Source of the DNA: Escherichia coli
GTDB lineage: Bacteria > Pseudomonadota > Gammaproteobacteria > Enterobacterales > Enterobacteriaceae
Direction: 5' to 3' (one strand)
Length of the DNA: 9,155 nt
Assembly (NCBI RefSeq): GCF_003334315.1
Contig: NZ_QOWR01000091.1
A model generated the notes under the pieces. That model saw nothing but the letters and a program-made list of their open reading frames with translations, had not been told where the DNA came from and made no database searches. Shown here piece by piece: positions 3,405-6,377 of the stretch. How positions within the stretch are numbered: position 1 is the stretch's first letter; every line of letters starts with the position of its first letter. Position numbers and translations under genes: made by a program.

Positions 3405-6377
3405 TTACCAGTGCACTCCAATGGTGAGAAACGCGTTGTTGCGCTCTCCGTTACGTTGATTAATCGCCTTAAAGGTATGTTGATACTCGACGCCGAGACT
3501 GACTTTGTGCGGCCAGGCGTCGTAGTGCGTCTCGCCGGTCCAGATATTCCAGCGGACCCCGACACCGCCAAGCTGCGCGCCCTGAGTGCCTTTATCACGA
3601 TAGCCGTTGTCCTGAACGTGAGCGTAAGGCTCAATAGTCTGTCCGTTAGCTACCTTCTGATGCCAGCTGACGCGATAATCTGCCGTCCACGCCTGAATAT
3701 CCTGGCGGATATATTGCGCCGCATCGAGGTACAGGTTTTGGGCAAACCAGCCTGAACCGTTCGGGTGCCATTCGTCGCTGTATTTGCCGCCATTAAAGAA
3801 TGAGGCGCTGGCGCGCAGCATGGTATCGGATGCGCCATTTTGCCCGTTCAGCGGCAACTGCTGTTCGACGGCGAGGAAAAAGATCTGATCGCGCAGCGGC
3901 TTCCAGCGTAGACCGGTGCCGGACATCGGATTTTTCACCGGCATCATCACCCCGTTTTCTCCGGTATCGGCAAAGACGCGGCTATAAACTGAGAGCAGGT
4001 CGCCTTCCAGCAGCATATTGCGTCCGATGCGGTACTCGGCTTCCAGTTGCCCGTAGCTACGATAGCTTTTCCCTGGCGCTGCGCCGCCGACATTATTGTT
4101 AGCGGTGCTCATTGCCCCGGAACGCAAGCCGATAGAAGAATCGAAACTGAACGTCCAGTGGCGACCGACCTCCTCATGCAAACGGCGGAAATTGAAGCGT
4201 TGCTGATTTTGCTCTGGGGTCAGTGGGGTTATCAGCGCCTGATTATCAATGTCATCAATCACCAGCCGGGCGTAGTGCTGCGTCGCAGGCATGTCATCCA
4301 GACGCTGGTTCACATAGGCCAGTTGTCGGATCAGTGCCGGATCGTCCGGTAGCCCTTTATGCGCCTGTTCGAGCATTTCCCGCGACTGTGCGATATCACC
4401 GCTATCCCACAAGGCGTAACCAAGCGCTGCCTGGGTGTTGCTATTATTCGGTTCCAGTTCCAGCGCGGCGCGCAAATCACTCACCGCGGCCGGGACATTA
4501 TGACGTTGGCGATAAATTGTCGCCCGCGCAACGTAAGCGTTGGCAGAAGGCGCAATATTGATTGAGCGCGTGAGATCGTTCAGTGCGAGTTCCGGCTGAC
4601 CAGGAATGTAACGTTGCGCATGCAGCCACCAGTAGAGCGCATTGCTTCCCAGTCCACGTTTTTCTGCCTGTTGTAGCCAGCGATCGCGAGCCGCACCATT
4701 TCCTGCCGCCTGGGCGGTATTGGCAGCAGCAAGCAGATCCTCATTGCTCATGTCGTGAAGACTGATTTTCTGCCAGGCCGCCAGTGCGGTGGCGTAGTCC
4801 TCAACCTGATACGCCTGATAGGCTACCGCACGATGTTGCCAGGCGTTCGGTTGTCGTTGTTCGGCCTGAAGCCATGCATACAACGCCACACCGGGTAGCG
4901 TGTCCCGATAACACTTTGCCAGACGGTTCCAGGCGGCGGCATCGTAGGAAGGCGACATATCGCCCAGCAAGCGAACTATTGCCGGGCAATTATCTGCAAT
5001 ACCCGGCAACTGACTTTGCCACTGACGTTGCTCCGCCAGCGGTAAGGGTTTCGATAAAATCGCCACCTTCGCCGGCGTTGCCAGGTAAGGATGACTTTCC
5101 AGCAGAGACGCCAGTCGCGCCATTAAAGTCTGGCTGACACGCGCATCGCCCTGGAAAGGATAGCGTTGCAGCAATAAATCGGCAGCTTCGCGTGACTGCT
5201 CGTTCTGCATCAGTTGCCAGGTCAGTTGATCCAGGCGGGTAAGATTTGCCGGTTCTTGCTGATACAGCAATCGTGCCAGACGCAGAGCTTCAGCCTTGTT
5301 ACGGGTCGCCACGCTGACAGCATAACGCTCCTCAAGCATTTCATTGGCGGGGAGGGTGGCGAGCAGTTTTTGCGCTGCGTCGTACTGACCTTCTTTTAAC
5401 AGCACCGGTAGCGTCGCGCCAACAACATACTGGCGGTTATCGGCAAACTGCACCGTATAATTCGCCAATGCCTGAACGGGGTTGGCGCTGTATTTAGATA
5501 ACAGATAGAGCCAACTTTTCTCTTGTGCGTCCGTGGTAAACAGCGGCTTATTTTCAATGAGATAATGCTGGAGGCGTGCTTTTTCGCCACGATAAGCCAG
5601 CGCGGTCGCGTAAGTAATATATGACTGAGGATCGGTGAAGATCCCCTGTGATTGCAGTGCCAGGATCCGATCGTCCAGCTGCCCGGCAAGAAGCACGTCA
5701 AACCACTGACGGCGTTCTGCCGCGCTTAATGTGTTCTGCTGGCGTGCTTCATTGTATAGCGTATCTGCCTGGGACCATTGTTTCAGGTAGATTGCCCGTT
5801 GCAGCAGATCGGTTCGCAGCGTTTTTCCTTCCGGCGATGCAGCAAACGTCGCATCGTTCAGTTGCGCTCTGGCGACAGGTAACTGTGCCAGCCGCAGGGC
5901 ATTCTGCCCGACTTCACTGCGACAACGCAGGGTCGGCGCAGCATCGCACGCTTTTTGCTGGGCAAGCAGTTCTTCAACAGTCGTAACGCTTTTCACTTCA
6001 ACTGGAATAGCCGCCAGACTGCGCTCAAGTCGGGCATCTCCTGGGTGACGTTTCAGTTGATCCTCCAGCAACAGCCGCGCCCGGTCATCATGACCAAAAT
6101 GGCGATAGGCTTCCGCAAGGTATAAAGTCAGCGGAATATTATCCGGCACCTGCTGGTGTATATATTCAAATTCGCGGATGGCGGTTGCTTCGTCGTTATT
6201 TTTCTGTGCCTTCAGCGCCTTATCGAGACGGGGATAAATAACAAAATGGCGATAATCGCTCAGCCCCAGCTCTTCTGCGCTGGTGCCGATATTGTCTGCG
6301 AGTGCGCTGGTACTCAATAAAGACGTCAGCAGTAAACCAGACCATCCGATGACGCGATTAAGGTTATTCTCCTTCAT
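3405..6377 (-). CDS. nfrA: NfrA, outer-membrane exopolysaccharide export protein (N-terminal TPR-rich periplasmic region plus C-terminal beta-barrel), phage N4 adsorption protein A, 990 aa
   Basis: The track ORF 3405..6398 (997 aa) begins at a TTG. The ATG at 6375-6377 (MKENNLNRVIGWSG...) has a GGAG SD 9 nt upstream and gives the 990-aa K-12 length. Signal peptide ...LSTSALA; C-terminus ends ...FLTIGVHW, an aromatic terminal residue typical of outer-membrane barrels. Confidence 0.92.
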   Translation of the reverse strand: MKENNLNRVIGWSGLLLTSLLSTSALADNIGTSAEELGLSDYRHFVIYPRLDKALKAQKNNDEATAIREFEYIHQQVPDNIPLTLYLAEAYRHFGHDDRARLLLEDQLKRHPGDARLERSLAAIPVEVKSVTTVEELLAQQKACDAAPTLRCRSEVGQNALRLAQLPVARAQLNDATFAASPEGKTLRTDLLQRAIYLKQWSQADTLYNEARQQNTLSAAERRQWFDVLLAGQLDDRILALQSQGIFTDPQSYITYATALAYRGEKARLQHYLIENKPLFTTDAQEKSWLYLLSKYSANPVQALANYTVQFADNRQYVVGATLPVLLKEGQYDAAQKLLATLPANEMLEERYAVSVATRNKAEALRLARLLYQQEPANLTRLDQLTWQLMQNEQSREAADLLLQRYPFQGDARVSQTLMARLASLLESHPYLATPAKVAILSKPLPLAEQRQWQSQLPGIADNCPAIVRLLGDMSPSYDAAAWNRLAKCYRDTLPGVALYAWLQAEQRQPNAWQHRAVAYQAYQVEDYATALAAWQKISLHDMSNEDLLAAANTAQAAGNGAARDRWLQQAEKRGLGSNALYWWLHAQRYIPGQPELALNDLTRSINIAPSANAYVARATIYRQRHNVPAAVSDLRAALELEPNNSNTQAALGYALWDSGDIAQSREMLEQAHKGLPDDPALIRQLAYVNQRLDDMPATQHYARLVIDDIDNQALITPLTPEQNQQRFNFRRLHEEVGRHWTFSFDSSIGLRSGAMSTANNNVGGAAPGKSYRSYGQLEAEYRIGRNMLLEGDLLSVYSRVFADTGENGVMMPVKNPMSGTGLRWKPLRDQIFFLAVEQQLPLNGQNGASDTMLRASASFFNGGKYSDEWHPNGSGWFAQNLYLDAAQYIRQDIQAWTADYRVSWHQKVANGQTIEPYAHVQDNGYRDKGTQGAQLGGVGVRWNIWTGETHYDAWPHKVSLGVEYQHTFKAINQRNGERNNAFLTIGVHW

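Follow-up and report, generated by a model that had tools for sequence, protein, structure and literature searches.

Escherichia coli NfrA combines the layout of a synthase-dependent exopolysaccharide exporter with a barrel predicted to have 12 strands

The closest described counterparts of the Escherichia coli protein NfrA are exporters of synthase-dependent exopolysaccharides (EPS). PgaA, the porin for poly-N-acetylglucosamine (PNAG; PDB 4Y25; pgaABCD), joins a signal peptide, a periplasmic tetratricopeptide repeat (TPR) region and a C-terminal barrel in one polypeptide, as NfrA does, and is likewise encoded with a glycosyltransferase family 2 (GT2) synthase controlled by cyclic di-GMP (c-di-GMP). 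BcsC (cellulose; PDB 6TZK/9B8H) and PelB (Pel; PDB 9H80) share with NfrA a long TPR superhelix followed by a C-terminal barrel in a synthase-dependent system. The barrels of the solved exopolysaccharide porins comprise 16 strands in PgaA, BcsC and PelB and 18 in AlgE (PMC12141448, PMC9384988). The exporter layout of NfrA was published by Junkermeier & Hengge 2021 (PMC8669469) and Sellner et al. 2021 (PMC8669472), both in mBio, the latter describing the NfrA barrel as 16-stranded from an AlphaFold model. Here we analyse nfrA in a 9,155-nt stretch of the E. coli chromosome (contig NZ_QOWR01000091.1 of assembly GCF_003334315.1; hereafter the window), which shows 100 % identity to complete genomes and carries the annotated genes fimZ, tRNA-Arg, envY, ybcH, nfrA and nfrB. 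The signal peptide, TPRs, barrel and exporter role of NfrA have been in print since 2021 and are captured by Pfam and NCBIfam; the sole new point is the barrel itself, for which two models predict 12 strands, contradicting the published 16.

The nfrA coding sequence (2973 nt, 990 codons plus TAA; Table 1) matches the annotated gene exactly in its coordinates, and the NCBIfam model NF007302 ('phage receptor') scores 1889.7 bits against a cut-off of 1223, aligning over 1-990/990. The product is the same protein as E. coli K-12 NfrA (bacteriophage N4 adsorption protein A) and is encoded in the same nfrB-nfrA-ybcH operon. We put the probability at about 0.85 that this region is E. coli nfrA and that its product is both the outer-membrane component of the Nfr exopolysaccharide system and the phage N4 receptor. 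The longest open reading frame (ORF) begins at a TTG seven codons upstream of the nfrA ATG (6375-6377); the evidence supports the ATG at 6377, with a GGAG 7 nt upstream of it and the NF007302 alignment starting at the first residue. The end of nfrB and nfrA overlap by 14 nt, which Junkermeier & Hengge 2021 described together with the structure of the operon (PMC8669469), and the ybcH ATG directly follows the nfrA TAA. NCBIfam identifies NfrB as a GT2 glycosyltransferase that carries an MshEN motif for c-di-GMP binding. YbcH, which may act like a glycoside hydrolase, yielded DUF4434 alone in Pfam and no match in a PDB sequence search. Promoter, terminator and Rfam scans gave nothing above chance inside the operon, the sole RNA gene being tRNA-Arg. 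Across 5426 complete E. coli genomes, nfrA is a single-copy gene found in 5215 (with at least 80 % coverage in 5136), and its DNA identity to other E. coli genomes is 95-100 %.

The N-terminus of NfrA is a predicted cleavable signal peptide of the Sec type, as judged from sequence rules, conservation among homologues and the literature. Its residues, MKENNLNRVIGWSGLLLTSLLSTSALA followed by DN, include K2/R8, a hydrophobic core and A-L-A at positions -3 to -1, and NfrA is without a lipobox, its first Cys being residue 144. This pattern is kept in 37 NfrA homologues, and a 'classical signal sequence' has been reported for NfrA (PMC8669469). AlphaFold2 (AF2) places a helix at residues 6-18, followed by low confidence at 20-47.

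Downstream, residues 28-720 are rich in A (15.3 %), L (13.9 %), Q (8.5 %) and R (7.2 %). The full-length AF2 model, built on an alignment of 37 homologues, reaches a predicted local distance difference test (pLDDT) score of 85.5 and places 42 helices in residues 49-738, which are 74 % helical. In a Foldseek search with this model, the N-terminal 690 residues match the TPR superhelices of Ski3, Ctr9, OGT, anaphase-promoting complex (APC/C) subunits and LbcA, with alignments spanning 600-880 columns at E 1e-13 to 1e-9. By sequence, Pfam finds TPRs in NfrA only at 60-124 and 612-688, and a profile of the 37 homologues searched against the PDB retrieves TPR proteins with E down to 7.6e-44, chiefly via positions 527-716. 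Taken together, the Pfam, profile, AF2 and Foldseek results show the entire segment 49-738 to be a TPR-type solenoid with about 21 pairs of helices. Both a signal peptide and an Ala/Leu/Gln/Arg-rich, TPR-like helical region had been proposed in the original prediction for this gene, and each agrees with what was found. The TPR regions of NfrA and PgaA give a weak BLASTP alignment (E 7e-5). The helical region of NfrA measures about 690 aa, compared with 8 TPR motifs in the TPR model of PgaA, and is similar in length to the TPR part of BcsC, in which the terminal repeat is TPR19 (PMC9384988).

NfrA has four Cys in all, arranged in two close pairs, C144/C152 and C464/C489. All 37 homologues keep C464 and C489, and conservation of both C144 and C152 is 90 % or higher. 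Four near-invariant Cys suggest two disulfides and fit a periplasmic location; the TPR region thus probably contains two periplasmic disulfides, with the pairing inferred.

The remaining C-terminal part is predicted to form an outer-membrane beta-barrel. DSSP applied to the full AF2 model assigns a helix at 721-738 and, after it, 12 strands between residues 741 and 989. A barrel-only AF2 model (residues 712-990; alignment of 40 barrels with identity down to 20 %; pLDDT 88.6, predicted TM-score (pTM) 0.85) contains the identical helix and 12 strands. The count is based on the DSSP strings and the ranking of fold matches. When the family alignment was scanned roughly for amphipathicity, a weak test, the predicted loops showed no additional strands. 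The composition of residues 721-990 includes G 11.1, N 7.4, S 6.3, F 4.4 and W 3.7 %. Along the strands, polar residues alternate with apolar ones, and the protein ends in ...NAFLTIGVHW. The terminal residue across the NfrA family is mostly W, else L, F or Y. A scan of the barrel region against 1.84 billion representative proteins for distant relatives returned 208 matches at E <=1e-3, and the barrel is C-terminal in the full-length ones (lengths about 640-1360 aa). The alternation of hydrophobic residues and the ...IGVHW end with its terminal Trp had been noted in the original prediction and were recovered here. The Gly, Asn and Ser richness given there for the C-terminal part was found as well, and the Tyr richness was not (4.4 % vs 4.8 % in the N-terminal part). 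A barrel is likewise present as anticipated, and the size of roughly 270 residues (3408-4220) becomes about 250 aa beginning at residue 741 (window position 4157), the earlier boundary at residue 720/721 being the start of the last helix, about 20 residues before the barrel.

NfrA shares with the exopolysaccharide TPR-porins the aromatic C-terminal residue and, on the predicted strands, lacks their 16-stranded barrel (18-stranded in AlgE). PgaA has 16 strands (PMC9384988), as do BcsC and PelB (PMC12141448), unlike the 12 predicted for NfrA, and PelB, unlike NfrA, additionally needs a ring of the lipoprotein PelC. PgaA, BcsC and PelB were absent among the PDB sequence matches listed, all of which are TPR proteins, and a review from 2020 on the outer-membrane proteome of E. 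coli could not provide a homology model of NfrA (PMC7383365). Because TPR matches dominated the Foldseek results for the full model, the barrel-only model was searched separately. It retrieved a COG4313 channel (4RL8), PcoB (7PGE), KdgM/NanC-type porins (8XUA, 2WJR), FapF (5O65) and autotransporter beta-domains (3QQ2, 3AEH), that is, generic outer-membrane barrels with TM-scores <0.5 and sequence identity of 4-10 %. We take these seven structures to be 12-stranded; the PDB title of 9FDG states 12 strands, and a designed 12-stranded barrel is also among the matches. None of the COG4313, PcoB, KdgM/NanC, FapF and autotransporter barrels has an N-terminal TPR domain or a polysaccharide synthase operon, unlike NfrA. 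The description of NfrA as PgaA/BcsC-like, also given in the original prediction, is thus supported by the layout and the gene context, and kinship of the barrel families is not shown.

The gene context was compared with five diverged NfrA-like loci, from Plesiomonas and four metagenomic or draft-genome contigs, in which barrel identity to E. coli ranges from about 58 % down to 20 % (whole-protein identity about 50 % and 22 % for two of them). A GT2 gene lies immediately upstream of the nfrA-like gene in all five loci and a DUF4434 gene immediately downstream in four, and the order GT2 synthase, NfrA, DUF4434 (the GT2 carrying MshEN in E. coli) persists in homologues with as little as about 22 % identity. 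Furthermore, a gene for a UDP-N-acetylglucosamine (UDP-GlcNAc) 2-epimerase (WecB-like) adjoins the GT2 gene in 2/5 loci. This synteny of epimerase, GT2 and NfrA matches the published genetics, in which supply of UDP-N-acetylmannosamine (UDP-ManNAc) by WecB, activity of NfrB and NfrA are all required for N4 infection (PMC8669469, PMC8669472). In addition, nfrA is required for the EPS-dependent motility defect (PMC8669469), and nfrA knockouts serve as strains lacking the polymer NGR (PMC11990801); polymer export by NfrA has been termed 'putative' (PMC12633501). Layout and gene context together support the reading of NfrA as a PgaA/BcsC-like exporter.

The two distant loci with an epimerase gene (L004 374-6717 and L011 4091-10372) encode the UDP-GlcNAc 2-epimerase, then a GT2 without MshEN, then the NfrA-like protein, and the DUF4434 gene follows in L004 and is absent in L011. 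Substrate supply is therefore built into these operons, and c-di-GMP control appears to be absent from them.

On this basis, we hypothesize that the NfrA precursor would be exported by Sec and cleaved after Ala27, and that its C-terminal 250 residues would be inserted as a beta-barrel by the beta-barrel assembly machinery (BAM) via the aromatic C-terminal motif ending in Trp. The 690-residue TPR superhelix would remain in the periplasm, probably stabilised by the two disulfides, where by analogy with PgaA, BcsC and PelB it would reach toward the c-di-GMP-activated glycosyltransferase NfrB in the inner membrane and may dock the DUF4434 protein YbcH. The ManNAc-derived polymer NGR, made by NfrB, would be guided along the TPR groove and exit through the barrel, in which conserved charged and aromatic residues would occupy the polar strand face.

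Several points weigh against NfrA acting as such a conduit. The full-length AF2 model has a pTM of 0.52, which makes the arrangement of the domains uncertain. The 12 predicted strands stand against 16 or 18 in all solved synthase-dependent EPS porins (PMC12141448, PMC9384988). Searches of PDB sequences, queried with NfrA itself or the 37-sequence profile, listed generic TPR proteins, with no barrel relative and no solved NfrA, and hhalign of the 40-sequence NfrA barrel profile against the single PgaA sequence, a weak test, gave a probability of 0.4 % and thus no homology. Furthermore, NGR was still called 'enigmatic' in 2025 and is not chemically defined (PMC11990801). Lumen and lipid faces were assigned from hydropathy rather than from coordinates. 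In favour of a conduit, the polar face of the strands holds 19 of the 30 most conserved barrel positions, compared with 4 for the apolar face and 7 for loops, with mean information of 2.46 vs 1.99 bits (one-sided Mann-Whitney p = 0.0035). The conserved polar-face residues include the charged R800, R824, K826, E838, D851, R855, D885, K908 and E964 together with W877, Y883, Y918 and W946. Such conservation would be expected for the lining of a specific channel and would also fit a structural polar network; a barrel of 12 strands whose conserved interior is charged could be a closed one. NfrA may accordingly be pictured as an outer-membrane anchor, scaffold and phage N4 receptor whose small barrel is shut by polar networks like those of OmpA- or autotransporter-type barrels, while the polymer crosses elsewhere or stays periplasmic or cell-bound. 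The agreement of two models on 12 strands is compatible with this, the charged interior residues could be a salt-bridge network, and the N4 tail sheath protein gp65 binds NfrA directly, according to literature cited in PMC8669469. However, the conserved GT2-NfrA-DUF4434 module contains no other outer-membrane exporter gene in the five diverged loci, the need for nfrA extends beyond phage infection to the EPS-dependent motility phenotype (PMC8669469), and other 12-stranded top matches, namely the KdgM/NanC-type oligosaccharide porins, the COG4313 channel and FapF, conduct linear substrates. We therefore regard a non-conducting NfrA as unlikely. Somewhat better than even, in our judgement, is the case for a true 12-stranded pore that has no sequence relationship to the porins for PNAG, cellulose, Pel and alginate; the Nfr system would then be an independently assembled TPR-porin class, the smallest known, in which a linear ManNAc-based chain threads a channel of KdgM/NanC size lined by R824, K826, R855, W877, Y883 and D885.

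The joining of N-terminal TPRs to a C-terminal barrel is also found in Slam proteins, and Pfam returned weak TPR_Slam matches in NfrA (E 0.24 and 5.4), which raises the question of a translocon for proteins or lipoproteins instead of polysaccharide. These matches lack significance, the NfrA barrel falls into Pfam NfrA_C with no match to the Slam barrel family (DUF560), the neighbouring genes encode a glycosyltransferase, an epimerase and DUF4434 proteins rather than surface lipoproteins, and genetics tie the system to UDP-ManNAc supply (PMC8669469). We rejected a Slam-like function, which is highly improbable, on the insignificant TPR_Slam matches and the wrong gene context. A further question concerns the six ORFs of 100-145 aa on the plus strand that overlap nfrA, any of which might be a real antisense gene. 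Their number is unusual for ORFs of at least 100 aa, since about 2.0 are expected in codon shuffles of nfrA and six were reached in <=2/500 shuffles. The excess is, however, limited to the 100-aa threshold: 9 ORFs of at least 60 aa compare with 7.2 expected, none of at least 120 aa lies within nfrA against 1.1 expected, and the longest in-gene ORF (117 aa) falls below the shuffle mean of 144. The Plesiomonas orthologue, of equal GC content (55.2 %), has no antisense ORF of at least 100 aa. None of the six has an NCBIfam match or is annotated in RefSeq, and the count of promoter-like sequences lies under the shuffle mean. A genuine gene among them is thus hardly credible, and the candidates were rejected on the codon-shuffle counts, the Plesiomonas orthologue and the want of NCBIfam match and annotation. 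The antisense ORFs are spurious, as the original prediction had held; it had attributed them to the architecture of the protein, and the cause is instead codon composition in a mildly GC-rich gene combined with the length threshold.

Table 1. Positions in the window of nfrA, its operon partners and the features of NfrA
Feature	Position	Strand	Evidence
nfrA coding sequence	3405..6377, TAA at 3405-3407	-	ORF and translation; annotated nfrA at 100 % identity; NF007302
Shine-Dalgarno GGAG, 7 nt before nfrA ATG, within nfrB 3' end	6385..6388	-	Upstream sequence
Predicted Sec signal peptide, residues 1-27, predicted signal peptidase I site between ALA and D	6297..6377	-	Sequence features
Periplasmic TPR-like superhelix, residues 49-738, 42 helices, about 21 helix pairs	4164..6233	-	AF2, Foldseek, PDB profile search
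Sequence-detectable TPRs, residues 60-124	6006..6200	-	Pfam TPR_19 4e-7, TPR_14 4e-4
Sequence-detectable TPRs, residues 612-688	4314..4544	-	Pfam TPR_19, TPR_14, TPR_12, TPR_11; PDB matches to LbcA and OGT TPRs
Span of four conserved Cys codons: C144 5946-5948, C152 5922-5924, C464 4986-4988, C489 4911-4913	4911..5948	-	Sequence, alignment
C-terminal outer-membrane beta-barrel, residues 741-990, 12 predicted strands	3408..4157	-	AF2 models
Pfam NfrA_C (PF13283), residues 809-977	3447..3953	-	i-Evalue 9.7e-68
Last strand and beta-signal-like NNAFLTIGVHW, hydrophobic at 0, -2, -4, -6, terminal Trp	3408..3437	-	Sequence
nfrB	6364..8601	-	NCBIfam NF008411 1332 bits; c-di-GMP motif NF053729; annotation
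ybcH, DUF4434 protein, operon partner, periplasmic accessory	2514..3404	-	NCBIfam NF007404 520 bits; Pfam DUF4434 1.7e-68

Mobile elements lie at both ends of the window. Positions 1-454 are the right-hand part of an IS1 copy with a transposase ORF at 61-438. Of the fimbrial gene sfmF, just the final ~117 nt (454-570) directly adjoin this copy, and therefore 709 bp present in the related genome L001 are missing here. The exact IS1/sfmF junction was found in one piece in 1/5426 complete E. coli genomes (NZ_CP054224.1), and a junction probe is covered to 80 % in at most 5 genomes. On the other side, upstream of nfrB (8872-9155), the window ends within the 3' part of an ISAs1-family transposase gene; because this part maps to the annotated locus L001 (11082-12218), an ISAs1-family element adjoins the nfr operon in this strain. 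The tRNA-Arg gene (anticodon UCU; 1448-1524, plus strand; ARAGORN; Rfam 72 bits) is located between fimZ and envY.

Rearrangements of nfrA itself occur in other E. coli. In some, nfrA is fused in frame to the type VI secretion gene vgrG, giving a VgrG-NfrA chimera of 1470 aa that is followed by ybcH, with nfrB gone (L008 11-4423, GCA_001575615.1; proteins P0002-P0008 and P0091). In another genome, the last 48 nt of nfrA alone remain, inside a tssI/vgrG gene. It thus appears that the nfr operon repeatedly serves as a junction for deletion or recombination with a type VI secretion system (T6SS) island.

If the 12-stranded pore predicted for NfrA is true, the published description of its barrel as 16-stranded would need correction. 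NfrA would then have fewer strands than any solved exopolysaccharide porin (16 or 18), and how, or whether, so narrow a barrel passes polymer would become a question for the Nfr system.

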